NCBI RefSeq assembly: GCF_003019035.1
Contig: NZ_CP027447.1
Source: Escherichia coli
GTDB lineage: Bacteria; Pseudomonadota; Gammaproteobacteria; Enterobacterales; Enterobacteriaceae
Length of the DNA: 64,000 bases
Strand: one strand, 5' to 3'
How positions within the stretch are numbered: position 1 is the first letter of the stretch; each line of letters opens with the position of its first letter. This document shows positions 26,290-43,026 of the stretch, piece after piece. Under the pieces are notes generated by a model. That model was not told where the DNA came from. It saw only the letters and a program-made list of their open reading frames with translations, and did no database searches. The position numbers were made by a program, and so were the translations under genes.

Positions 26290-26573
26290 AACTTCCCGAC
26301 GCAAAGTGATTAAAAGGGAGCCAATACAGGCAAGTCGTTGAGAATAAAGTGCAGGTTAAACTGGGTAAAGCGGCATCGTCTTATTTCCCTCAAGCGGCCT
26401 GTTTACGGTGGGTGATTGTAACGGGCATAGGTTAAATAAAACTTAAAGAAAGCGTAGCTATACTCGCAATAATGTAAGAATGTGCTTAACCGTGGTTTCA
26501 GCTACAAAATTTGCTTTCTCGTTAGCTGCGCTTTTATTAAACTTTGCGCGATTATTATTGGCGAAGAAATTGC

Positions 26574-27806
26574 ATGCAAAATAAATTAGCTTCCGGTGCC
26601 AGGCTTGGACGTCAGGCGTTACTTTTCCCTCTCTGTCTGGTGCTTTACGAATTTTCAACCTATATCGGCAACGATATGATTCAACCCGGTATGTTGGCCG
26701 TGGTGGAACAATATCAGGCGGGCATTGATTGGGTTCCTACTTCGATGACCGCGTATCTGGCGGGCGGGATGTTTTTACAATGGCTCCTGGGGCCGCTGTC
26801 GGATCGTATTGGTCGCCGTCCGGTGATGCTGGCGGGAGTGGTGTGGTTTATCGTCACCTGTCTGGCAATATTACTGGCGCAAAACATTGAACAATTCACC
26901 CTGTTGCGCTTCTTGCAGGGCATAAGCCTCTGTTTCATTGGCGCTGTGGGATACGCCGCAATTCAGGAATCCTTCGAAGAGGCGGTTTGTATCAAGATCA
27001 CCGCGCTGATGGCGAACGTGGCGCTGATTGCTCCGCTACTTGGTCCGCTGGTGGGCGCGGCGTGGATCCATGTGCTGCCCTGGGAGGGGATGTTTGTCTT
27101 GTTTGCCGCATTGGCAGCGATCTCCTTTTTCGGTCTACAACGAGCCATGCCTGAAACCGCCACGCGTATAGGCGAGAAACTGTCGCTGAAAGAACTCGGT
27201 CGTGACTATAAGCTGGTGCTGAAGAACGGTCGCTTTGTGGCGGGGGCGCTGGCGCTGGGATTCGTTAGCCTGCCATTGCTGGCGTGGATCGCCCAGTCGC
27301 CGATTATCATCATTACCGGCGAGCAGTTGAGCAGCTATGAATATGGTTTGCTGCAAGTGCCTATTTTCGGGGCGTTAATTGCGGGTAACTTGCTGTTAGC
27401 GCGTCTGACCTCGCGCCGCACCGTACGTTCGCTGATTATTATGGGCGGCTGGCCGATTATGATTGGTCTGTTGGTCGCTGCTGCGGCAACGGTTATCTCA
27501 TCGCATGCGTATTTATGGATGACCGCCGGGTTAAGTCTTTATGCTTTCGGTATTGGTCTGGCGAATGCGGGACTGGTGCGATTAACCCTGTTTGCCAGCG
27601 ATATGAGTAAAGGTACGGTTTCTGCGGCGATGGGGATGCTGCAAATGCTGATCTTTACCGTCGGTATTGAAATCAGCAAACATGCCTGGCTGAACGGGGG
27701 CAACGGACTGTTTAATCTCTTCAACCTTGTCAACGGCATTTTGTGGCTGTTGCTGATGGTTATCTTTTTAAAAGATAAACAGATGGGAAATTCGCACGAA
27801 GGGTAA
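26574..27806 (+). CDS. mdfA: MFS multidrug efflux transporter
   Basis: Start at [14 protein letters not shown] gives 410 aa; 12-TM MFS protein. Confidence 0.92.
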
Positions 27807-27809
27807 AAA

Positions 27810-27840
27810 AATGCCTGATTGCTTTGTGCGATCAGGCATT
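27810..27840 (-). terminator. Rho-independent terminator after ybjH
   Basis: aatgcctgat ... atcaggcatt stem; on the minus strand it is followed by TTTTTTACCC. Confidence 0.55.
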
Positions 27841-27846
27841 CTCAAA

Positions 27847-28131
27847 TTAATGGTGATGGTCGTCAATCTGGTGTTCGATAACCATCCCTTCACCTACGCT
27901 GGCAAGATGGCGAACATAAGGATGCGGGCGGTAAGCCGGAGCTGGCGCAGGAGCCACATAGACGGTTTGCGGCACAGTCGCGACGCTGACCGCTTGTGGA
28001 ACGCTGACTGAATCAGGAACCACAACCACTTTGTATCCACTCGGCACATCGACGGTGACACTTTGCGCCATCGCCACACCAGTAAAGCCCATTAAAAGCG
28101 CGCCCAACAGTAGACAATTTTTCATAATCAT
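27847..28131 (-). CDS. ybjH: Small secreted protein YbjH
   Basis: Start at MIMKNCLLLGALLMGFTGVAMA (signal peptide); 94 aa. Confidence 0.85.
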   Translation of the reverse strand: MIMKNCLLLGALLMGFTGVAMAQSVTVDVPSGYKVVVVPDSVSVPQAVSVATVPQTVYVAPAPAPAYRPHPYVRHLASVGEGMVIEHQIDDHHH

Positions 28132-28215
28132 TTCGCCTGAAATAATGCAGCGGGTTAATTTCCGCGAATTATGCAATCTTCATTCAGGCATTGTGTTGCC
28201 GGGCGTGCTGCCGTT

Positions 28216-29031
28216 TTATTGGTTAAATGGCGCTTCGTGTTTAAGCACTTTATCGATCACATCCAGTACGCCTTCACGGTTATTGGAGCCTGCCCGGTAT
28301 TTTGCCGCTGCGACGACCGCGTTGCCGGCATTTTCCATTGCAAAACTAAAGCCTGCCTGACGCAGCATCTCAATATCGTTACCGCCATCGCCAAAGACCA
28401 CCACTTCGCTGTCGTCTATTCCCCATAATTTCTGCAGTTGGCGAAGGCCATTGGCTTTATGTATGCCGGGGATAATCAGATCGATGCTGCCGTTGCCGGT
28501 GTGGACCGGCACCATAATATCGCCGATGGCCTCATGTAATGCTTTTTGTACTTGTGGAATCAGTTCATCGGAAAGATTCAGACCAAACTTAAAGAAGATA
28601 TCTTCTAAGTTGTCAAAGTTATCGACGTATTCCAGACGGTGATAATACATTTCCGCCACCGTTTTCATGGCATCGTCATATTTTTTGAGGGTATAGGCGC
28701 TATTTTTTCCGCAGGCAATAATTTCCACTTCCGGGCGCGTCAGCAAATGTTCCACGACAGTAGCAAACGCATCCTTCGACAGCTCGCCATTAAAAACATC
28801 TTTGCCTTCGCTCACTACCCAGCCGCCGTTTTCAGCCACAAAGGCTATTTCATTAGCAATTTCCGGAAAGAAAGAGATCAACTGATAATATTGATTCCCG
28901 CTGGCGACCACAAAGCGAATGCCTTGTGCTTTCATTTGCTGATACTGAGCCATAAACCGCTCACGGTTATAGGTTTTTTGATCGCTTAAGAAAGTACCAT
29001 CCATGTCTACCGCAATTAATTTAATGCTCAT
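28216..29031 (-). CDS. ybjI: HAD-superfamily phosphatase (Cof-like; paralog of ybiV)
   Basis: 271-aa ORF; DMDGT and GDGGND HAD motifs; clearly paralogous to the ybiV product in this window. Confidence 0.9.
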   Translation of the reverse strand: MSIKLIAVDMDGTFLSDQKTYNRERFMAQYQQMKAQGIRFVVASGNQYYQLISFFPEIANEIAFVAENGGWVVSEGKDVFNGELSKDAFATVVEHLLTRPEVEIIACGKNSAYTLKKYDDAMKTVAEMYYHRLEYVDNFDNLEDIFFKFGLNLSDELIPQVQKALHEAIGDIMVPVHTGNGSIDLIIPGIHKANGLRQLQKLWGIDDSEVVVFGDGGNDIEMLRQAGFSFAMENAGNAVVAAAKYRAGSNNREGVLDVIDKVLKHEAPFNQ

Positions 29032-30239
29032 CAACTATTCTCCATCGCCGTCTGCGTTTTGGTATCGGGTTTGGCGACGGCTTTCGCGACAATAGCCGCG
29101 AGAATAACCAGCGCCAGTACAACCAGCATTGCACTACGTAATCCATAATGTTCGCCGAGATAGCCCAGTAGCGGCGGCCCGACGAGGAAAGCCAGATAAC
29201 CGGTCGTTGCTACCACACTGACGCGGGTTGGTGCATCGGGGCCGGTATCGCTGGCGGCAGAAATGGTCAGCGGGAAGCCCAGCGAGGCACCTAGTCCCCA
29301 AAGTACAACAGACACTCCTGCGACCCAGGCGCTATCGACAAAAATAATCAGCCCAATACCCAACGCCCCCATTAGTGCACTGGCCCGAACCACGGCAACG
29401 CGACTGTAACGGTCGATGAACCAACCGCCGGTGAAGCGTCCAACGGTCATCCCCAGGGTAAAACCGGCATAAATCAGCGAGCCGGAAGTAGGACTAAAAC
29501 CGTGACCGTCAACCATTAATAAGGGTAACCAGTCGTTGGCAGAACCTTCGGCAAAGGCCATCGCCAGCACCACAACACCAATCAACAGCAACTGGATATC
29601 GCGATAAAAAGGTACGCCTTTTTCGCCATGCTGGGTGCCATCGGCAGCATTTTTGCCCGTACCGTCAGGGATTGCCTGAATGGCGATATAAATAGGTGCG
29701 ATGCCTACCAGCGCCGCCAATAAAATATGCACCGTTGCCGGAACGCCAAAGGCCGTCAGTGCCATCCCGACACCAGCGCCTGCCAGCGTGCCCAGGCTAT
29801 AAAAACCGTGCATCATCGGCAAAACCGTTTTATTCATTTCTCGCTCAACGGCGGCACCTTCAACGTTTATCGCCACTTCCGCAGAACCAAAACTTGCCCC
29901 AAAGACGCCGAGACCAACCGCGAAGAGCAGGGGCGATGTCAGCCAGAGTGCCAGACTTAGTATCATCATCCCGATCAATGCGCAGGACATCGTGACCAGG
30001 ATGACATTACGCGTCCCAAAGCGTTTCACTAACCACGCCGAGCAGAGAATACCGCTCATTGAACCGATCGACAGACCAAAGAGGACTCCACCCATTTCAG
30101 CGATCGAGACAGAAAGAATATCGCGGATAGCAGGCGTACGGGTTGCCCAGGACGCCATTAACAGGCCCGGCAAAAAGAAGAACATAAACAGCGCCCAGGT
30201 TCGGCGTTTCAATGCATTACGTGAAGAATTTACGGTCAT
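29031..30239 (-). CDS. ybjJ: MFS-family inner-membrane transporter
   Basis: 402-aa hydrophobic multi-TM ORF. Confidence 0.88.
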
Positions 30240-30322
30240 AGATCACGTCAAAATAAGAAGAGGGAAGACAACATTAGCAAGGTTGTGTACATTTGTACAC
30301 AATTGCAGAGAGAGGAAATGAC

Positions 30323-30859
30323 ATGCGTCGCGCTAACGATCCGCAACGGCGAGAAAAAATTATCCAGGCCACGCTGGAGGCGGTGAAACTTTATGGAATA
30401 CATGCTGTTACGCACCGCAAAATCGCTACCCTTGCCGGGGTACCGTTGGGGTCGATGACCTACTATTTTTCAGGAATTGATGAGTTGTTGCTGGAGGCGT
30501 TCAGCAGTTTTACTGAGATCATGTCCCGGCAATATCAGGCATTTTTTAGCGATGTTAGTGATGCTCAAGGCGCATGCCAGGCTATCACCGATATGATCTA
30601 CAGCTCACAGGTGGCAACGCCGGATAATATGGAGCTGATGTACCAGCTCTACGCGCTGGCTAGCCGAAAACCGCTATTAAAAACGGTAATGCAAAACTGG
30701 ATGCAGCGCAGTCAGCAAACGCTCGAACAATGGTTTGAACCCGGAACCGCCCGCGCGCTTGATGCGTTTATTGAGGGGATGACGCTGCATTTTGTCACCG
30801 ACCGTAAGCCGCTATCGCGCGAGGAGATTTTGAGGATGGTTGAGAGGGTTGCAGGGTAG
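30323..30859 (+). CDS. rcdA: TetR-family transcriptional regulator RcdA
   Basis: Start at [10 protein letters not shown] gives 178 aa; N-terminal TetR HTH. Confidence 0.9.
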
Positions 30860-30963
30860 TAGATAAATTTCAGGCAACAAAAAACCCACTTATCTAAATG
30901 GGTTAATAAAAACAATAAGTTAGATAAAAAACAATAACTTAATGTGGTGGTCAGTGGTGGTTA

Positions 30964-32016
30964 TTATGGGGTAATGCCAACCGCTGCCGCCACTTTGTCG
31001 CCATTTGGTAACGTTGCCAGTGGATTGAAACGGAGCGCCGTTTCCAAATGATCCAGTGCCAGATGTGCATAACGCATAGTCATTTTTATATCGTGGTGTC
31101 CGAGAATTTTTTGTAAGGCCAAGATGTTTCCACCCGACATCATGAAGTGCGCCGCAAACGTATGGCGCAGAACGTGTGTCAGTTGACCGCGAGGGAGAAC
31201 GATAGACGTTTTTTCCATCACGGATAAAAATTGAAAATAGCAGTCTGTGAAGAAATTGAACCCATCGAGCGCCATGATCTCTTCATAAAGCTCTTTACTG
31301 ATAGGGATGCTTCTGTTTTTCTTCCCCTTCGTTCTCACAAAGGTGATTCGGTACTTGGTGACCTGTGAGCGGGTAAGATTGATTGCTTCTCGCCAACGTG
31401 CGCCTGTACTTAGACATATTTTTACCACCAGTGCCAGAATTGGGTTCTGACGTTTGCAGTCAGACAGTAATTCGATGATCTGCTCATGTGTAAGCCATGC
31501 CATTTCCTTTTCTGCGATAGTGAATTTGCGCATCTTCTCTAATGGGTTTGGAAGTGTCCATTCACCCAGGCGGGAAAGTTCTCTGAAAACGCTGCTTAGA
31601 TGGCTTTGCTCCAGGTTAACAGTAACTGGGCTTGCTCCTTTCTTCCATTTTTCACTGAAGTAGATTTCACCAGTAAGGCGTTTATCGCGATAGTGAGCAA
31701 ACATTTTTGAGGTGAGATCGGTTGCAAGGGGATTTCCCAAGGCGTCAACCATCAACAGCAGCTTGTTGTAGACATGCTGTCCGGCAGTAAGAGATTTGCC
31801 ATGTAATTTGAACCATAGCTCAACCATATCTTTCAGTGTCCGACGATCCACTGATTCGCCCAGCCAGGGCTTTGCTTCTATTTCCCCCATGGTGTATCGC
31901 TCGAAGGCCAGTGCTTCGCCTTTGGTGGCGAATTGTTTACGCACACGACGCCCATTACGTCCGGCGGGGTAACATTCGCAAAGCCATTTCCCTGTGGTGA
32001 GTTTTCGTACTGCCAT
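30964..32016 (-). CDS. int: Phage tyrosine integrase (P2 Int-like)
   Basis: Start chosen at MAVRKLTTGKW; C-terminal catalytic region (HVLRHTFAAHFMMSGGNILALQKILGHHDIKMTMRYAHL) carries the tyrosine-recombinase R-H-R-Y signature. Confidence 0.88.
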   Translation of the reverse strand: MAVRKLTTGKWLCECYPAGRNGRRVRKQFATKGEALAFERYTMGEIEAKPWLGESVDRRTLKDMVELWFKLHGKSLTAGQHVYNKLLLMVDALGNPLATDLTSKMFAHYRDKRLTGEIYFSEKWKKGASPVTVNLEQSHLSSVFRELSRLGEWTLPNPLEKMRKFTIAEKEMAWLTHEQIIELLSDCKRQNPILALVVKICLSTGARWREAINLTRSQVTKYRITFVRTKGKKNRSIPISKELYEEIMALDGFNFFTDCYFQFLSVMEKTSIVLPRGQLTHVLRHTFAAHFMMSGGNILALQKILGHHDIKMTMRYAHLALDHLETALRFNPLATLPNGDKVAAAVGITP

Positions 32017-32204
32017 AAAAAATGCCCTCCAGTAGAGAGCATTTTCACTGTATGTATAACCAGTGTCAATGTATGAAATCCTACGACCATACATCTCACT
32101 GAAGCCATAATTAAGTTGGCTATTCTTTTTGCTATGTGAGCATGTAACTTTTGCGGTTAACCTGCGGCTCATTTTTATTTTAGGCGCAGATATAAAAGCA
32201 AAAG

Positions 32205-32396
32205 TTATCGTGAGTTTTTAGTACAGATTTTTTTGGATTTACTAATAGTTCCATCATTGCAAACGAATTTGCCATCTGAGGTACAGTGAGAAACACCTCC
32301 CTTTTTCCCTGAACAGGGATAATTTCTAGCATAGGTAGTTAGTGGGTTTAATAACAAAGAACATGAAAAAACCACAAAAAATACCTTACCAAGCAT
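32205..32396 (-). CDS. Small Cys-rich secreted protein of unknown function, between cI and int
   Basis: 63-aa ORF with strong RBS (GGGAGG); N-terminal signal peptide and four cysteines in the mature part; starts 16 bp after the cI stop on the same strand. Confidence 0.5.
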
Positions 32397-32411
32397 AGTT
32401 TCCTCCCGGTA

Positions 32412-32987
32412 CTATTTAACATACTTGACTGTTAAACTTATAATTTTACCAATTATTTCAATGTCTTCTATCTTGCATTCGAACGCTCTGTTTCCACCCT
32501 CGACGAAGATTCTTCCACCGGGTAAACGAGTAATGTCACGGATCGTTATTTCACCATCAATACTTATTACCCATTTACCATCACGTATATCATCAAATTC
32601 CTTATCACAAATAAATTCAGAATTATTATCTGTGATTACAAAAAGACTCTTGAATGCCGACGGTAGAAATCCCCTATCGAAAATATAAAAACCGTCTTCA
32701 CACAAGGCACCATCAGATAATACATATTTAGCAACTTCCATAGTATTTGTATTACCTGAAGTTTGCTTTGAACCATGTCCGGTTGTGAGCCAATTAAGCG
32801 AGGTGCCCGTTTCAAGGGCGCATTGGATTACCCATTCTGCTGGGAATGAGTCACGCATGTAGCGTGTGGCGAGTGTACTTTTAGAGATTCCTAAATGATC
32901 GCACAACGCCTGTCGAGTTTTGAATCCATAAGCTTCTACCATGCGCTCTATAGCGCCTCGTCCGCCTTTCTCCAAATTCATGGTCAC
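32412..32987 (-). CDS. cI: Prophage repressor CI (186 CI-like)
   Basis: 191-aa ORF; N-terminal HTH (LCDHLGISKSTLATRYMRD); divergent from apl/cII as in phage 186. Confidence 0.85.
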   Translation of the reverse strand: MTMNLEKGGRGAIERMVEAYGFKTRQALCDHLGISKSTLATRYMRDSFPAEWVIQCALETGTSLNWLTTGHGSKQTSGNTNTMEVAKYVLSDGALCEDGFYIFDRGFLPSAFKSLFVITDNNSEFICDKEFDDIRDGKWVISIDGEITIRDITRLPGGRIFVEGGNRAFECKIEDIEIIGKIISLTVKYVK

Positions 32988-33328: not shown

Positions 33329-33360
33329 TTCGATTCTGAAATACATCAGAGGCATTGACC

Positions 33361-33870
33361 ATGTTTGATTACCAAGTTTCCAAACATCCACATTTTGATG
33401 AAGCCTGTCGTGCATTCGCACTGCGCCACAACCTGGTGCAACTGGCAGAACGTGCGGGCATGAATGTGCAGATTCTGCGGAACAAGCTGAACCCTGCTCA
33501 ACCTCATTTATTAACCGCACCAGAAATCTGGCTGCTTACCGATCTGACTGAAGATTCAACGTTGGTAGATGGTTTTCTGGCACAGATTCATTGTCTGCCA
33601 TGTGTACCGATTAATGAGGTGGCAAAAGAGAAACTGCCGCATTACGTCATGAGCGCAACTGCAGAGATCGGGCGTGTTGCAGCAGGTGCGGTATCTGGTG
33701 ATGTAAAAACCAGTGCCGGTCGTCGTGATGCTATCAGCAGCATTAACTCTGTAACACGACTGATGGCGCTGGCTGCTGTTTCATTGCAGGCCCGTTTACA
33801 GGCTAATCCTGCGATGGCGAGTGCAGTTGATACCGTGACTGGCCTCGGTGCTTCATTCGGTTTGCTGTGA
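33361..33870 (+). CDS. cII: CII-like lysogeny establishment activator (186 CII family)
   Basis: Start at [20 protein letters not shown] gives 169 aa; strongly resembles recalled 186 CII. Confidence 0.85.
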
Positions 33871-35233: not shown

Positions 35234-35460
35234 TGGCTGATGCAATGGATCTCGTACAGCAGCGCGTTGAAGAAGAACGCCAACGCCATATCCGTGCTGC
35301 CCGTGCCAAAACGCCGGGCGTGTCCCGCGTGCTTTGCATTGAGTGTGAAGCGCCAATTCCGCCAGCACGCCGCCGTGCCATTCCGGGTGTGCAGCTTTGC
35401 ATTACCTGTCAGGAAATCGCAGAGCTGAAAGGCAAACATTACAACGGAGGTGCTGTATGA
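35233..35460 (+). CDS. TraR/DksA-family C4 zinc-finger protein
   Basis: 75-aa ORF with CxxC-N17-CxxC (CIECEAPIPPARRRAIPGVQLCITCQ). Confidence 0.7.
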   Translation: MADAMDLVQQRVEEERQRHIRAARAKTPGVSRVLCIECEAPIPPARRRAIPGVQLCITCQEIAELKGKHYNGGAV

Positions 35461-36314
35461 GCACCATCCTGAAATGGGCGGGAAATAAAACTGCCATAAT
35501 GTCCGAACTGAAAAAACATCTTCCTGCTGGCCCGCGACTGGTTGAACCTTTCGCGGGTTCCTGTGCTGTGATGATGGAGACGGATTATCCCAGCTATCTG
35601 GTTGCGGATATTAATCCTGATTTAATCAACCTCTATAAAAAGGTTGTCGCTGATTGTGAATCGTTTATATCTCGCGCCAGAGTTTTATTTGAGAACGCAA
35701 ACAGGGAGATGGATTATTACAACATAAGGCAGGAGTTTAATTACTCAACTGAAATTACTGATTTCATGAAAGCGGTATATTTCCTGTATCTCAATCGTCA
35801 CGGTTACCGTGGTTTATGTCGCTATAACAAGAGCGGGCATTTCAACATTCCCTACGGTAATTATAAAAATCCGTATTTCCCTGAAAAAGAAATTCGCGCA
35901 TTTGCAGAGAAAGCCCAGCGGGCAACGTTTATCTGCGCCAGCTTTGATGAAACGCTGGCGATGCTGCAGGTGGGGGATGTGGTGTATTGCGATCCGCCTT
36001 ATGACGGCACGTTTTCCGGTTATCACACTGACGGCTTCACTGAAGATGACCAGTATCATCTGGCATCCGTTCTTGAGCATCGGTCATCAGAAGGACATCC
36101 GGTCATTGTTTCTAACAGTGACACATCCCTGATCCGTTCGCTGTATCGCAATTTTACTCACCACTACATCAAGGCAAAACGCAGCATCGGCGTAGCAGCT
36201 GGTGAGAGTAAATCTGCAACAGAAATCATCGCTGTTTCTGGGGCACGCTGCTGGGTGGGATTTGATCCTTCGCGTGGCGTGGATAGTTCTGCTGTGTACG
36301 AGGTGCGTGTATGA
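35457..36314 (+). CDS. DNA adenine (N6) methyltransferase, Dam-like, phage-encoded orphan
   Basis: Start at [14 protein letters not shown]-binding EPFAGSCAV and catalytic DPPY motif ([10 protein letters not shown]). Confidence 0.8.
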
Positions 36315-38725
36315 GTCATGACGATATGAGCAACTCTAGCGGCTTTAACGAGGCCGCTGCATCATTTTCATGGAACGGCCCGAAAAAGGCCATTAACCCT
36401 TATCTGGACCCGGCGGAAGTTGCGCCGGAGTCTGCACTTTCAAACCTGATCACTCTGTATGCTGCCGATAACGAGCAGGAACAACTGCGCCGCGAGGCAC
36501 TGAGTGAGCAGGTCTGGGAGCGTTATTTCTTTAATGAATCCCGTGATCCTGTCCAGCGCGAAATGGAGCAGGATAAGCTCATTAGCCGGGCAAAGCTGGC
36601 GCATGAGCAGCAGCGTTTTAATCCAGACATGGTCATTCTGGCTGACGTCAACGCCCAGCCTTCCCATATCAGCAAGCCGCTGATGCAACGTATTGAATAC
36701 TTCAGCAGCCTGGGCAGGCCAAAGGCTTATTCCCGCTATTTGCGTGAGACGATTAAGCCATGTCTGGAACGACTGGAGCATGTACGCGACAGTCAGCTAT
36801 CCACTTCTTTTCGCTTTATGGCAAGCCATGAAGGGCTGGACGGCCTGCTGATCCTGCCTGAAATGAGTCAGGATCAGGTGAAACGCCTGTCTACCCTTGT
36901 CGCTGCGCATATGAGCATGTGTCTTGATGCCGCTTGTGGTGATTTGTACGCCACCGATGATGTTAAGCCAGAAGAAATCCGCAAGACATGGGAAAAGGTG
37001 GCAGCGGAAACCCTACGTTTGGATGTCATCCCGCCTGCGTTTGAGCAACTCCGTCGGAAAAGAAACCGCCGTAAACCAGTGCCCTATGAACTCATTCCGG
37101 GCTCGCTGGCGCGTATGCTGTGCGCCGACTGGTGGTATCGGAAATTGTGGAAGATGCGTTGCGAATGGCGGGAAGAGCAGTTGCGTGCTGTCTGCCTGGT
37201 CAGCAAAAAAGCATCTCCCTATGTCAGCTATGAAGCTGTGATGCATAAACGTGAGCAGCGCCGTAAGTCGCTGGAGTTTTTCCGTTCTCATGAACTGGTG
37301 AACGAAGACGGAGACGCGCTGGATATGGAAGATGTGGTAAACGCCAGCTGCAGCAACCCGGCGCATCGCCGCAATGAGATGATGGCCTGTGTTAAAGGTC
37401 TGGAGCTTATCGCGGAAATGCGCGGTGACTGCGCCGTTTTCTACACCATTACCTGTCCGTCACGTTTCCATTCCACGCTCAATAACGGCAGACCCAACCC
37501 GACCTGGAAAAACGCGACGGTAAGACAAAGCAGCGATTATCTGGTCGGTATGTTTGCTGCATTTCGTAAGGCGATGCACAAAGCCGGGTTGCGCTGGTAT
37601 GGCGTGCGGGTGGCTGAGCCGCATCACGACGGCACAGTTCACTGGCACCTGTTGTGTTTCATGCGCAAAAAAGACCGCCGCGCCATTACTGCATTGTTGC
37701 GTAAGTTTGCTATCCGTGAAGACCGCGAGGAGCTGGGCAATAACACGGGGCCGCGCTTTAAGTCTGAGTTGATTAACCCGCGCAAAGGTACGCCAACAAG
37801 CTACATCGCGAAATACATCAGTAAGAACATTGACGGGCGTGGTCTGGCTGGCGAGATCAGCAAGGAAACGGGGAAATCCCTGCGTGATAATGCTGAATAC
37901 GTTAATGCCTGGGCGTCTCTGCATCGTGTTCAGCAATTCCGCTTCTTTGGCATTCCGGGGCGTCAGGCTTACCGCGAACTGCGATTGCTGGCTGGTCAGG
38001 CGGCAAGGCAACAGGGGGACAAAAAAGCAGGTGCGCCGGTACTGGATAACCCGCGCCTTGATGCAATCCTGGCTGCTGCTGATGCTGGTTGTTTTGCCAC
38101 CTACATCATGAAGCAGGGCGGCGTACTGGTTCCCCGCAAATATCACCTGATCAGAACCGCTTATGAAATCAACGAAGAGCCGACCGCCTATGGCGATCAC
38201 GGCATTCGTATTTATGGCATCTGGTCACCCATTGCAGAGGGCAAGATCTGCACTCATGCAGTGAAGTGGAAAATGGTTCGTAAGGCCGTTGACGTTCAGG
38301 AGGCGGCAGCCGACCAGGGCGCTTGCGCCCCTTGGACTCGTGGCAATAACTGTCCCCTTGCTGAAAATTTGAACCAACAAGGGAAAGACAAATCAGCTGA
38401 TGGGGACTCCAGAACGGATATTACCCGTATGAATGACAAGGAGTTGCACGATTACCTGCACAGTATGAGCAAAAAAGAGCGCCGGGAACTGGCTGCAAGG
38501 TTACGCCAGGTGAAACCGAAACGGCGTAAAGACTACAAACAGCGAATTACAGACCATCAGCGACAGCAGCTCGTCTATGAACTGAAGTCCAGGGGATTTG
38601 ATGGCAGCGAGAAAGAAGTCGATTTGCTCCTTCGCGGCGGCAGTATTCCGTCAGGAGCAGGCCTGCGTATCTTCTATCGGAACCAACGTCTGAAGGAAGA
38701 TGATAAGTGGCGGAACCTGTATTAA
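36311..38725 (+). CDS. Replication initiation endonuclease (P2 gpA-like, HUH rolling-circle family)
   Basis: 804-aa ORF; HUH motif (HWHLLCF) and catalytic tyrosine pair (SYIAKYISK). Confidence 0.88.
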
Positions 38726-38794
38726 TTACGCGGGTTAACAATTCGTGCTCTTAATAATACCAGGCATATCAGGCCGATGAACGTAAAAAAACGT

Positions 38795-38837
38795 TTTACA
38801 TCAGTAAGATTATTATATACTGTAAATATAAACAGTG
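38795..38837 (+). promoter_or_regulatory. SOS promoter: -35 TTTACA, 17-bp spacer, -10 TACTGT overlapping a LexA box (taCTGTaaatataaACAGtg, 38818..38837)
   Basis: CTGT-N8-ACAG with an AT-rich spacer read directly; 40 bp upstream of the ATG at 38878. Confidence 0.7.
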
Positions 38838-38877
38838 GTTATGTATACAGTATTGTTTTGGTGTCATAGGAGGAAAG

Positions 38878-39066
38878 ATGCAGGACTATTTTTTGGAGTC
38901 TTTGAAGCTCCAGCGCATTGATTTTTTTCTTAAGCTTGTAGCGGCTAGTGAGTGTAGTGATGAAGAGAAGGGGCTGGCTCTGCAGTGGGTTTCTGAATTG
39001 ACTGATGAACTCATGGCAAAAATCAGAAGCCACGAATACAACCGCTCAATGGATGTCATCAGCTGA
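38878..39066 (+). CDS. SOS-regulated small protein (possible antirepressor, Tum-like by position)
   Basis: 62-aa ORF with strong RBS (AGGAGG); first gene downstream of the LexA box. Confidence 0.5.
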   Translation: MQDYFLESLKLQRIDFFLKLVAASECSDEEKGLALQWVSELTDELMAKIRSHEYNRSMDVIS

Positions 39067-39076
39067 GGTGACTTTT

Positions 39077-39310
39077 ATGCGCATTGAAATAATGATCGAT
39101 AAAGAGCAGAAGATTAGCCAGTCTACCCTGGACGCCCTTGAATCCGAGCTTTACCGCAATCTGCGCCCCCTGTATCCCAAAACGGTAATTCGCATTCGCA
39201 AAGGTAGCTCTAACGGTGTGGAACTAACCGGACTGCAACTGGATGAAGAAAGAAAACAAGTGATGAATATTATGCAGAAGGTGTGGGAGGACGACAGCTG
39301 GCTGCATTAA
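39077..39310 (+). CDS. DinI-family protein
   Basis: Start at MRIEIMIDKEQK (RBS GAGGTGA); 77 aa; resembles recalled DinI including the acidic C-terminus (WEDDSWLH). Confidence 0.75.
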   Translation: MRIEIMIDKEQKISQSTLDALESELYRNLRPLYPKTVIRIRKGSSNGVELTGLQLDEERKQVMNIMQKVWEDDSWLH

Positions 39311-39502
39311 GAAACGTTGCCCCCAGGAGGATTCATTCTGATGGGGGCTAGTTTGGGCAATGAGTGAAATAAGGCGTAAGGTGGGCGGTTATTTTGATAA
39401 GTGATCGTCCGCTTTGTGTCAGAAGCAGAAGTGGGAGTGTCTGAGACTCTCTAAAAGTTGATGATTCACTTACAAAACCATTTTCCTGATGGATGCTTAC
39501 AC

Positions 39503-39838
39503 TTACGAATGATCATTCTGTTTAGTCTTCATGAGAAAATCCCGAATCTTTGCCAAGTTTGAATTTTCGGGGATTGAATCCATGTACGGATCACGCTCAA
39601 ACACTAATTGCTCAGATTCAACGAAAGCCTGCCACTCTACTGGGTCTAGCTCAAATCCCATTGCTGTCATATCACTTTCATCTTCCCCCTCGATCCAGTG
39701 GACTAAATAAAACAATTCATCATCAGGAGAATCATCCTCACCATCAACAATATCAACATCGGTTACAGTGATACGTAGGGTGGGATCGATTTTTGAGACA
39801 TAAATTCCTAACTGTGGTATAGGGGGAATATTGTTCAT
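39503..39838 (-). CDS. Highly acidic small protein of unknown function
   Basis: 111-aa ORF with GGAG RBS; very Asp/Glu-rich (e.g. DVDIVDGEDDSPDDELFY, EGEDESD). Confidence 0.55.
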   Translation of the reverse strand: MNNIPPIPQLGIYVSKIDPTLRITVTDVDIVDGEDDSPDDELFYLVHWIEGEDESDMTAMGFELDPVEWQAFVESEQLVFERDPYMDSIPENSNLAKIRDFLMKTKQNDHS

Positions 39839-40303
39839 GGAAACTCCTTTTATTGGTGTTTGCTATTTGAATAAAAATACGCCAAACAGAGTGTTAACTG
39901 TGAATATGGAAAGAATCGTTGTAAGTACCCCGCTTAGGTGTCCCATTCTATTTTAGAGGTTCTCGTGCATATGGATTATGTTATCTGAAAGTTAACTTCC
40001 GCTTCCCGTTCACAGCGAACATTCATCTTTGTAAACCCGTATGATCCGTTTTTCAAGTGGCCATTCAGATACGGATTTTCACTTCCTTGACAGTGCATGA
40101 CTATGCTGCATGAAATCGCATGATCGATTGAGGATCGTCTTTGCTCAGATCCGCCAGAACTGGCGGGCTTTTGCTCATGTCATGCATGTGCATGAAAACC
40201 ACTGCATAAAGCGGGCAGGCGTGGCGGGGATACGAGCGCGCGCTTATTACTTTGATAGTACTCGGGTTATAATATGGATGACTATCTATCTCGGAGAATG
40301 TGC

Positions 40304-41956
40304 ATGTCATTGGACTATATTAAAGAACAGTTGTCAGACTTTATTTCATCTGCAGAACCTGAGGTAATGGCTATTCAGGGTGAATGGGGGATTGGGAAAA
40401 CCTATACTTGGAATACTTTCTTAAAGGAAAATAAAAATAAGATTGCATTTAATAGATATAGTTACGTCTCTCTTTTTGGTGTTAATTCATTGGACGCATT
40501 AAAATATTCCATCTTTGAAAATACAATTACAAAAGATTTTATTGGAAATAAACCTAATTTAAAAACAGCAACACAAAATACAAAGGGACTTCTTGAATCC
40601 TGCACTAGAAAGACCGCTCGTTTGTTAAAAGAAACACCTGTTGTGAAAAATTTCGCTACGACACTTGAGTCAATGTCATTTATGTCAATTACTAATGTTA
40701 TTGTAGTCATAGATGACTTAGAAAGACGTGGTAAAAATTTAGAAGTGAAAGATGTCTTAGGGTTGGTTTCTTTATTGAAAGAACAAAAAAATTGTAAGGT
40801 GGTTCTTTTACTTAATAATGGGACAAGTGGTATGGATGATTACTCCACTTATAAAGAAAAGGTTATTGATAGAGAGATTACCTATAACCCTACGCCAGAA
40901 GAATGTGCAGCTATAGCATATAAAAATAATTCTGATGTTCATAAATTATTAAGCAAATACTCCATTTCTCTGGGTATTAAAAATATTCGGATACTGAAAA
41001 AAATAGAGCGGTTTTTGCTAGCCTTGTTACCTGCTATTAACGTTAATTTTGATAAAATTGCAAATGAAGTCGCACGCTCCTTAACTTTGTATTGTTGGAG
41101 TCATTACGCATTTACTCCAGATGGAGATGTACCATCATTGGAATATATTAGAAATATGAGAAATATCTATATGCGTGATGAAAAAGAGGATGGAAAAGGA
41201 AAAAAATGGCTTAATACTTTGCTTATATATGGTTATAAAAAAACAAACGAACTTGATGAAGTCCTTATAGACATGGTTAAGCATGGATATATTGATATGA
41301 ACAATTTTCAAAGGCAAGTAAGTCTAAGAAATGATGAACTTATCCGTGATAGTAAGCGAGGTTCACTGTTTGAAGCATGGAAGCTTTTCTATAATTCATT
41401 TGAAGATAACCGAAATCAGGTTGTTGATAATCTATATCAAGCGGTGGTTGGTGGGATAGAGTATGTAACTCCAAGTGACTTGGATAGTGTTGTCGGACTG
41501 TATAGAGATTTAGATGAAAATATTAAAGCAAGTGAATTAATAAGTAAATTTATTAATTACGGCAATGATGCTCTTAAGGAATATGTCCAATCTATTTACA
41601 TGAATGTTCATCCTATAAAAGATGCTGAGTTAAAGTCAAAAATCCAAGATTATTCTATTACTTTAAATCTGGATGGTTCTATAAAGGATGTTCTAATAAA
41701 ATTATCAAGTCAGAATGGTTGGTCTGATAGGCACGAGGAAATATTGGATGCTGCCTCAGAGGATGACTACTATGATTTATTTAAAAAAGTCATTCTTGAA
41801 GGTGGTGATTCAATAATAGCCACTGCTCTTAAGTTTGGTGGGTATAGCAATGGTTCAGATAGAATGAAACGCATCGGAGAAAAAGCGAGAAATGCTTTGA
41901 TAAGAATTGGAAATGAGTCGAAGATTAATAAAATACGTGTTAGACGGTATTTGTAA
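40304..41956 (+). CDS. KAP-family P-loop NTPase (alternative start at 40274)
   Basis: Walker A of KAP type (GEWGIGKTY) and Walker B (VIVVIDDLERRG); AT-rich codon usage unlike the flanking phage genes; lies at the P2 old/tin position between A and Q. Confidence 0.75.
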   Translation: MSLDYIKEQLSDFISSAEPEVMAIQGEWGIGKTYTWNTFLKENKNKIAFNRYSYVSLFGVNSLDALKYSIFENTITKDFIGNKPNLKTATQNTKGLLESCTRKTARLLKETPVVKNFATTLESMSFMSITNVIVVIDDLERRGKNLEVKDVLGLVSLLKEQKNCKVVLLLNNGTSGMDDYSTYKEKVIDREITYNPTPEECAAIAYKNNSDVHKLLSKYSISLGIKNIRILKKIERFLLALLPAINVNFDKIANEVARSLTLYCWSHYAFTPDGDVPSLEYIRNMRNIYMRDEKEDGKGKKWLNTLLIYGYKKTNELDEVLIDMVKHGYIDMNNFQRQVSLRNDELIRDSKRGSLFEAWKLFYNSFEDNRNQVVDNLYQAVVGGIEYVTPSDLDSVVGLYRDLDENIKASELISKFINYGNDALKEYVQSIYMNVHPIKDAELKSKIQDYSITLNLDGSIKDVLIKLSSQNGWSDRHEEILDAASEDDYYDLFKKVILEGGDSIIATALKFGGYSNGSDRMKRIGEKARNALIRIGNESKINKIRVRRYL

Positions 41957-41959
41957 TTT

Positions 41960-41983
41960 GGGAGGGGGATTTTCATCCCCCCC
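41960..41983. terminator. GC-rich hairpin between convergent KAP gene and portal gene Q
   Basis: gggagggggat-tttc-atccccccc read directly. Confidence 0.5.
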
Positions 41984-41994
41984 ACACATTTTAT

Positions 41995-43026
41995 CTAATT
42001 CAATGAATAATCTTTGAAGGCTATTATTTTTTTCTTTAGCCAAATATTAACTTCTACAAGTCTTTTTTGTAAAGGAATTAACTCATTTCGCACAAAAACG
42101 CAACCGGCTTTCTCTATATCCCCAAATCCCCCAACATTATTAGGCATTATCCCCATCATTTGTGGCGGTACACGGTGCGCAGCCATCATGTCATCGCGGC
42201 TGACATTTTTGATATTCAGAAACTCATCCTTCGCCGCGACTTCTGACAGAGGAATGATCTGAAGGCCGTCCTTTTTGCCGTTAGGCGAGTACATAAACAG
42301 GTTGCGGAAGTTGCCTGGACCTTTGGCGCTTTTCATCGCGTTGCGGAGATTGTTCACATCCTCCTGATTCTGCGCGGCGTCGGTCATGTACATGATGAAG
42401 CCTGCATGGCTGCCGTTGATGTAATACTTACGGCGGAACAGCGTGGCAGACTCGTTGAGCAGGGCGGATGGAATGGCAGAAAGATAGCCTGGCAGGCCGT
42501 AGATCTCCTGGTTGATGTCCGGTTCCATCAGATGAAAAATGCTGCCTTTCGTGAACTGATACGGCTGGGTTGTCATACCGTATTGCACAAACCAGTAGGT
42601 ATCCAGGTCTAACCCACGTCGGGTGTATTTTGCCAGCGCAGGCTCAAGGGCGATAACTTCACCGAATCGGTTCGTGCGTTTCTCCAGGTAGGCGTTACCA
42701 AATACCAGATAGTCCTGCACAAAACGCGAAAAAGCCTGTTGGCTGAGCAGCGGATGAGGGATATAGGTACTGGTCAGAATGTTGCACTTTACTGCAATCG
42801 GGGAACTGTGATGCACGGCAGCGCGGAAGGTGCGTGCCAGTCCGTCAAAACTTACGGGTGGCTCATACCAGCGATCCGTCTGTACGCATTCCACATAGTC
42901 CAGCAGTTCGCGGCGGTCCAGTACAGGAATGGGATCACCAAAGCTGAAAGCTTCGGCTGAAATTTGATTTTTATGCTGACTCTGTTTCGTCGTCGCAGCG
43001 CGGTTTTTCTTACTCTTTCCCATCAA
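41995..43026 (-). CDS. Portal protein (P2 gpQ-like)
   Basis: 343-aa ORF adjacent to and co-oriented with the large terminase gene, as in P2. Confidence 0.85.
   Translation of the reverse strand: MMGKSKKNRAATTKQSQHKNQISAEAFSFGDPIPVLDRRELLDYVECVQTDRWYEPPVSFDGLARTFRAAVHHSSPIAVKCNILTSTYIPHPLLSQQAFSRFVQDYLVFGNAYLEKRTNRFGEVIALEPALAKYTRRGLDLDTYWFVQYGMTTQPYQFTKGSIFHLMEPDINQEIYGLPGYLSAIPSALLNESATLFRRKYYINGSHAGFIMYMTDAAQNQEDVNNLRNAMKSAKGPGNFRNLFMYSPNGKKDGLQIIPLSEVAAKDEFLNIKNVSRDDMMAAHRVPPQMMGIMPNNVGGFGDIEKAGCVFVRNELIPLQKRLVEVNIWLKKKIIAFKDYSLN

Follow-up and report, generated by a model that had tools for sequence, protein, structure and literature searches.

A free-standing acidic DUF8087 gene in a P2/186-like prophage of Escherichia coli, with relics of a lysogeny operon and a possible role as an electrostatic decoy

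Positions 39503 to 39838 (minus strand) of a 64,000-nucleotide stretch of Escherichia coli contig NZ_CP027447.1 (RefSeq assembly GCF_003019035.1; the whole stretch is hereafter the window) encode a highly acidic protein of 111 amino acids. The open reading frame (ORF) is a member of DUF8087, a family largely restricted to mobile genetic elements, and stands on its own as an accessory ("moron") gene carried by temperate P2-like phages and by integrative islands. It lies within a P2/186-like prophage, in the interval between gpA and gpQ that has been described as a defense hotspot of P2-like prophages (Rousset et al., 2022; PMC9122126). The family is compact and rare, with an extreme and conserved acidity and a recurrent, codon-overlapping link to integrase genes. 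Features of the sequence lead us to favor, tentatively and at somewhat less than an even chance, a reading in which the product would be an electrostatic decoy, probably expressed in the lysogen, that binds a basic protein.

The acidic ORF is intact from its ATG (39838-39836) to its TAA (39505-39503), and a Shine-Dalgarno sequence, AAAAGGAG (39844..39851, minus strand), stands 5 nt upstream of the start codon. In an alignment of six homologous cassettes from E. coli, Serratia, and Xenorhabdus, the ribosome-binding site (RBS) is nearly unchanged, and AATAAAAGGA is invariant. A LexA box upstream of the ORF was considered and rejected; all that is present there is an ACAG-N8-CTGT palindrome, which has the wrong orientation. 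The translation contains 26 Asp/Glu residues as compared with 7 Lys/Arg, with a computed isoelectric point (pI) of 4.05 and a net charge of approximately −19 at pH 7. Its Asp/Glu content (23.4%) is the highest among the 109 ORFs of at least 80 amino acids in the window, the runner-up reaching 18.6%, and includes the acidic runs DVDIVDGEDDSPDDELFY and EGEDESD. These values bear out an earlier note on this DNA, which had described a minus-strand ORF of this length and position with a good RBS and an extreme Asp/Glu content that includes these two clustered runs, and had proposed the pI calculation. The ratio of nonsynonymous to synonymous substitution (dN/dS) is 0.13-0.21 in comparisons with the five homologs for which dS is unsaturated. 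Because the protein also matches phrog_17127 over its full length and has 61 clusters of homologs, the ORF is a real gene and not a chance reading frame, and purifying selection acts on it.

The gene had already been catalogued, in a family that is itself uncharacterized. The protein is identical to RefSeq WP_001059831.1, which recent releases of the Prokaryotic Genome Annotation Pipeline name "DUF8087 domain-containing protein," and residues 1-111 align with the entire 111-position phrog_17127 profile (E = 2e-70). The 61 homolog cluster representatives are 50-98% identical to it, and DUF8087 (PF26332) is recorded on all 61, including one at 98%; membership in DUF8087/phrog_17127 follows from the full-length profile match. 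A Pfam-A scan of the protein itself returned nothing at E ≤ 10, neither PF26332 nor any other family, and an NCBIfam scan likewise returned nothing. The same Pfam-A scan of 29 distant relatives gave no match; DUF1292 was not found among them despite the UniProt label carried by two AFDB matches. In the literature, Table S5A of Rousset et al. (2022; PMC9122126) enters WP_001059831 as "hypothetical," alongside RVT_1 and AAA_15/21 cargo, and the main texts searched make no mention of DUF8087, PF26332, phrog_17127, or WP_001059831. What is new here is the linkage to integrase, the relics within the cassette, and the two-slot architecture described below.

DUF8087 is small and rare as a family, since a profile search of 1.84 billion representative sequences recovered only 34 proteins at E ≤ 0.001. 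Among 5,426 complete E. coli genomes, 213 carry the gene, including REL606, BL21(DE3), C41, and E2348/69. At least 99% identity is seen in 131 genomes, and every inspected copy of this class occupies the P2-like prophage slot described below; a further 80 genomes carry copies at 90-95% identity, the single inspected case of which, in ST648, is in a genomic island. The examined copies are mostly in prophages or integrative islands, and the contexts of some distant relatives are not obviously mobile.

Pairwise alignments of P2-like elements show that the gpA-gpQ interval is variable at two distinct slots. Slot 1 (approximately 39321..40091) begins after the DinI/Tum-like gene (39077-39310, plus strand; phrog_189, E = 1.4e-30; RefSeq "DinI-like family protein" WP_001217575.1), which is the final backbone gene before the slot and is convergent with the acidic ORF; it extends to a conserved 150-bp spacer (40092..40243) and is filled here by the DUF8087 cassette. 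Slot 2 (40244 to ~41960) takes the defense cargo, on the plus strand in all 26 IMG/VR loci compared, and is filled here by a KAP/P-loop NTPase gene (40274-41956, plus strand; RefSeq start 40304; phrog_4740, PADLOC candidate PDC-S49). Across P2-like elements, both phages and prophages, from E. coli, Salmonella (Fels-2), and Klebsiella, the spacer is 88-100% conserved regardless of the genes that flank it. It contains a terminator-like hairpin (40150-40167, plus strand) and might serve either to terminate the early or tum operon or to promote transcription of the cargo; an Rfam scan of 38700-42100, spacer included, returned no match. Slot 1 is merely 68 bp long in phage vB_EcoM-813R9, and other genes occupy it in Fels-2, USMARC-50748, and strain 504237. 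Approximately 1,300 E. coli genomes contain the spacer, as compared with approximately 130 that carry DUF8087 in slot 1. At the left edge of this slot, just past the stop of the DinI/Tum-like gene, is a perfect 9-bp GC-rich stem (GCCCCCAGG ... CTGATGGGGGC region; 39319-39350) that may act as a terminator or mark a recombination boundary.

The coordinates agree with the earlier note in placing the acidic ORF inside the cargo hotspot and divergent from the KAP gene. That note had also proposed that the product could regulate the KAP system or serve as its immunity partner, and this proposal is refuted by the co-occurrence data. A dedicated partnership (immunity factor, antitoxin, or regulator in one two-gene system) draws on the divergent arrangement of the genes, 435 bp apart in a defense hotspot, and on the same pair occurring in E. 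coli PSJ-29. That strain, however, is the only one of the 5,426 genomes in which a query spanning the DUF8087-KAP junction was covered; the KAP gene is found in 12 of these genomes, as compared with the 213 that carry DUF8087, and neither conserved co-occurrence nor synteny is observed. In two other KAP-bearing prophages, the position of DUF8087 is taken by a different gene, of 141 aa (phrog_7437) in one and of 203 aa in the other. Conversely, KAP is found in 0 of 26 DUF8087-carrying P2-like loci in IMG/VR, which present 18 different cargo arrangements; read from their sequences, these include PRTase with DprA, retron effector with reverse transcriptase (RT), AIPR, DUF262/GmrSD-like, TIR, SieB-like, ABC and AAA ATPase, RT fusion, and ParA with SIR2-like cargo. 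The identical DUF8087 protein also adjoins a DprA/ShosA-like gene in E2348/69 and a PDC-S59-like gene in CH468. Because the two genes occupy separate variable slots split by the 150-bp backbone spacer, they assort independently; DUF8087 is beside KAP only by chance, and a partnership between them has next to no probability. Adjacency within a prophage hotspot is in this case no evidence of partnership, but reflects two independent slots filled side by side. The KAP gene, which has matches only to PDC-S49 and phrog_4740, has been seen with three different slot-1 states, and its GC content is 32.5%, as compared with 49.8% for the window.

The origin of the slot-1 cassette is indicated by relatives at 40-70% identity, which P2-like prophages encode within their lysogeny operon. 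The usual gene order is a helix-turn-helix repressor (cI), a Flk_N-domain protein, DUF8087, and integrase (loci L004-L008, L010, L020, L052, and L053), and in loci of this repressor-Flk_N-DUF8087-integrase type the stop of DUF8087 overlaps the start of the integrase gene. An alternative order of C, int, and DUF8087, with an 8-bp overlap, is found at the prophage end in two loci (L055 and L056), and one short contig (L022) carries the C-terminus of a tyrosine recombinase followed by DUF8087 and then an AlpA-like gene. Co-oriented and overlapping or closely spaced frames with repressor and integrase are thus present in the relatives, while only a relic of this arrangement is found in the window. 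That relic is the 5′ end of a P2-type integrase gene, 16 codons long (39466..39516, minus strand; MIIRKCKHPSGKWFCK and a stop), which overlaps the stop of the acidic ORF. Its translation matches the N-termini of intact integrases (MTIRKHPSGKWL and VTVRKLPSGKWL) whose genes overlap the DUF8087 stop in relatives, and the relic shows that the cassette was excised from a junction between DUF8087 and int. A longer integrase fragment, of 71 amino acids, is retained in loci L046-L048.

On the other side of the acidic ORF, a hydrophobic mini-ORF of 27 codons (39863..39946, minus strand; MGHLSGVLTTILSIFTVNTLFGVFLFK and a stop) is probably the decayed 3′ end of the Flk_N gene, which encodes the tail anchor. 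Alignment with the Serratia and Xenorhabdus cassettes gives this assignment moderate support: approximately 55 nt before the ATG of the acidic ORF are conserved with those cassettes, in which the segment is still tail-anchor reading, and their relics read LLVGILLGAIFF as compared with FLIGGLLGAVLF in the tails of intact Flk_N proteins. The mini-ORF is also conserved in the island copy of the ST648 type, and a search of the window found no Flk_N homolog. The cassette in slot 1 reads, then, as a fragment of a lysogeny module with only DUF8087 intact, which argues that DUF8087 works alone and is selected for.

The decayed pieces of former neighbors that flank the acidic ORF, together with the lack of a clear promoter, might alternatively be taken to indicate that the gene is itself a functionless relic, carried along with the fragment. 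This appears highly improbable: the ORF is intact in 213 of 213 carrier E. coli genomes while both former neighbors have decayed, dN/dS between the slot-1 and island copies is 0.15-0.2, and invariance is seen at the RBS.

The intact Flk_N protein of the relatives (Pfam Flk_N, phrog_5825) is a tail-anchored protein of 209-215 amino acids, with a C-terminal anchor, encoded between the repressor and DUF8087 genes; it was observed in loci L004-L008, L010, L020, and L053, which derive from Klebsiella aerogenes and metagenomic P2-like prophages. Similarity to part of the Ant antirepressors is seen over its residues 35-116. This uncharacterized component of the lysogeny operon may be an exclusion factor.

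The recurrent proximity to integrase raises the question of whether DUF8087 is an accessory of the integrase or lysogeny module, in which an acidic barrel of chromo or Tudor type would act as a modulator, either on the basic arm-binding domain of the tyrosine integrase or on some other part of the recombination or repressor machinery. The most recurrent feature of the contexts is that the gene directly adjoins one for a tyrosine integrase, the two frames overlap at stop and start whichever of them comes first among lineages at only 40-70% identity, and the window itself has kept an integrase relic. However, the solo cassettes of the window and of the ST648-type island have remained intact away from any intact integrase gene; positions adjacent to int are generic cargo sites in prophages, and most P2-like phages lack the gene, as the counts of spacer and slot-1 genomes given above indicate. 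An integrase accessory is improbable on these data.

The ST648-type island provides a second context in which the gene is kept as a solo cassette. The ST648 island (NZ_CP008697.1, 2068000-2116000; L017) is approximately 35 kb long and bounded by an integrase, and its DUF8087 copy is 90% identical to that of the window. Its cargo includes a 1,589-aa TmtA/MkoA-like helicase, PDC-S06, an Avs-like giant protein, and HNH-type effectors; a Serratia copy of DUF8087 is near a conflict system, MC2/CTD6. A search for a downstream partner shared by the distant relatives identified a 127-aa membrane protein as the sole common neighbor (L046 and the ST648 island), and the cassette is extended by this protein in L046-L048 and in the ST648-type island beside ychF.

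Another account is that DUF8087 is a prophage exclusion or defense factor, which would protect the lysogen by sequestering a basic protein encoded by a superinfecting phage or P4-like satellite. The model for this reading is P2 Tin, which acts on T4 gp32. On the P2 map, tin and old lie opposite to the early operon, and the acidic ORF has the same orientation in the gpA-gpQ interval. We know of no single-gene defense with the size and composition of DUF8087, which counts against this account, as does the lack of any match to the defense models of PADLOC-DB v2 (0 families at E ≤ 0.1 for the acidic protein). On the other hand, relatives of the gene appear co-transcribed with a repressor and a tail-anchored membrane protein, the 90%-identical copy is inside a defense island, and DUF8087 is found in both of the P2-like sites that hold lysogen-expressed exclusion and defense genes, gpA-gpQ and cI-int (PMC9122126). 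Like tin, old, and other gpA-gpQ cargo (Rousset et al., 2022), it occupies this region of P2-like prophages without being part of the backbone; unlike that cargo, it lies upstream of the main cargo slot, in a small slot apart from it, is much shorter than either tin or old, is without a PADLOC match, and is only a "hypothetical" entry in Table S5A of that study. Taken together, we consider an exclusion factor a somewhat unlikely explanation.

The acidity of the protein is a property of the family as a whole. All 57 DUF8087-family sequences examined are strongly acidic, with pI values of 4.05-4.53 and net charges of −8 to −22. The core shared by the family spans residues 5-81, within which P8, G11, and W69 are invariant; the C-terminal helix is confined to the 111-aa subfamily, and the acidic loop (residues 32-42) differs in length among members, several of which lack it altogether. 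The strong negative charge persists also where single acidic positions are not conserved. Because all 57 sequences are acidic though this loop varies or is absent, the charge itself appears to be under selection. Separately, some distant relatives on metagenomic contigs (L057-L059) have a basic N-terminal extension (MGDAKRRG..ERVRQ) and are followed by a 103-aa protein that starts with a similar motif, MGHAKQRGTQDQRIAAALEK; the same type of extension (MGQAKxRG..RIAQA) is present in other distant relatives.

A structure prediction, as the earlier note had suggested, gave a small β-barrel of medium confidence. The AlphaFold2 model, built from a 29-sequence alignment, comprises strands at residues 11-15, 22-31, 43-50, and 61-64, a helix at 66-76, a strand at 78-82, and a helix at 94-108. 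Foldseek searches with the model gave no clue to function: they found only family-like small proteins in AFDB50 and nothing in BFVD. Candidate counterparts of the predicted fold are small SH3-like, chromo, and Tudor β-barrels (DUF1653, 3be3; FeoA, 6e55; the N-terminal domain of CarD).

These observations can be combined in the reading favored here. A fragment of a lysogeny module in which DUF8087 alone was intact would have entered the small slot after the dinI/tum-like gene, and the protein would most likely be made in the lysogen or when lysogeny is established. The small β-barrel may then act stoichiometrically as an electrostatic decoy, binding and blocking a positively charged, probably nucleic acid-binding, surface of a target protein; candidate targets are a defense enzyme of the host, a nucleoid protein, a competing phage's protein, and the integrase itself. 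We infer this timing and mode of action because the gene is free-standing and constrained, is independent of the neighboring cargo, derives from a repressor-integrase operon, and has a conserved charge. The more generic idea that a small acidic protein of mobile elements may be a mimic or an inhibitor is viable and is strengthened by the family-wide charge.

Several results weigh against the decoy reading. A promoter scan did not find a sigma-70 consensus upstream of the acidic ORF in the window. The AlphaFold2 model has only medium confidence (predicted local distance difference test, pLDDT, 76.6; predicted template modeling score 0.61), its acidic loop is poorly predicted (pLDDT ~58) with no rigid, Ocr-like array of charges, and the fold comparison gave no match to any solved DNA mimic. 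Searches by tblastn recovered no match in 50,697 phage genome records and a single plasmid among 72,556, a distribution unlike that of widespread anti-restriction genes. Finally, acidity by itself would also fit other roles, for example that of an antitoxin-like or chaperone-like protein.

Some of these results bear also on the possibility that DUF8087 is a DNA mimic of the classical anti-restriction kind, like Ocr or ArdA, made upon DNA entry to block type I restriction-modification or other DNA-binding defenses. The extreme conserved acidity, small size, and confinement to mobile elements are those expected of such a protein, and the neighborhoods are rich in conflict genes. Moreover, in P2/186-type phages the lysogenic promoter fires also right after infection, and a gene of the cI-int operon would thus be made early. 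The resemblance to Ocr and ArdA is in size, in a pI of approximately 4, in location on mobile elements, and in a plausible mode of action as a competitive decoy; high negative charge is the one property of those families that DUF8087 shares, whereas neither their sequence nor a rigid carboxylate-array fold is found. Pfam searches reveal no similarity to either protein, and searches of all PDB chains, solved mimics included, with phmmer and the family profile returned nothing meaningful. Ocr (T7 gp0.3) is a helical dimer and ArdA a three-domain arc, whereas DUF8087 is predicted to be a β-barrel with flexible acidic loops, so that the comparison with DNA-mimic families proposed in the earlier note yields no membership by sequence or by predicted fold. 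The contexts differ as well: Ocr and ArdA are found in lytic phages or in the leading regions of plasmids, whereas DUF8087 is in prophages and islands and virtually absent from plasmids and sequenced phages. Its ancestral site in a lysogeny operon, unlike those of Ocr and ArdA, points to expression in the lysogen and not to a classical early gene, and a constant block of host restriction in the lysogen would be costly to the host. A classical anti-restriction mimic is therefore unlikely.

A more far-reaching version of the decoy reading is that DUF8087 represents a new fold class of electrostatic inhibitor coupled to tyrosine integrases, or else a broad anti-defense protein with a fold unlike that of known mimics; this we regard as quite unlikely. 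In the integrase-coupled form, the acidic chromo/Tudor-like barrel, produced from the lysogeny operon, would mimic nucleic acid and control the arm-binding domain of the integrase, and might thereby stabilize lysogeny or block the integration of competing phages or satellites. The analysis as a whole gives no sign of an unusual mechanism.

Should the protein indeed be inhibitory, the known protein mimics would gain a new fold, and the gene could matter for work with E. coli B strains or with retron Ec86. In REL606, the copy of the identical protein (NC_012967.1, 889084-889419; L016) is in a P2-like prophage and adjoins retron Ec86, with its St85-family effector and RT. Genomic context was inspected in REL606, and BL21(DE3) and C41(DE3) are known as matches in the search. 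The presence of the identical gene in BL21 and, next to the retron, in REL606 makes this candidate easy to test.

The remainder of the prophage in the window has a P2/186-like layout. It begins with the integrase (30964-32172, minus strand) and the 186-type repressor (32412-32987, minus strand), and the interval between these two genes (32172-32412) is empty. These are followed by gpB (33355-33870), the Dam methylase (35397-36314), gpA (36311-38725), and a 62-aa ORF (38878-39066), all on the plus strand; on the far side of slot 2 are the portal gene Q (41995-43026) and the terminase gene P (43023-44789), both on the minus strand. The P2 cos sequence was compared with the window and gave no match. 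Host genes in the region 26544-30859 include two MFS-type transporters, a HAD-like phosphatase, and a TetR-like regulator; because they run to approximately 30860 and the integrase gene starts at 30964, the left end of the prophage and its attachment site are near 30860-30960.

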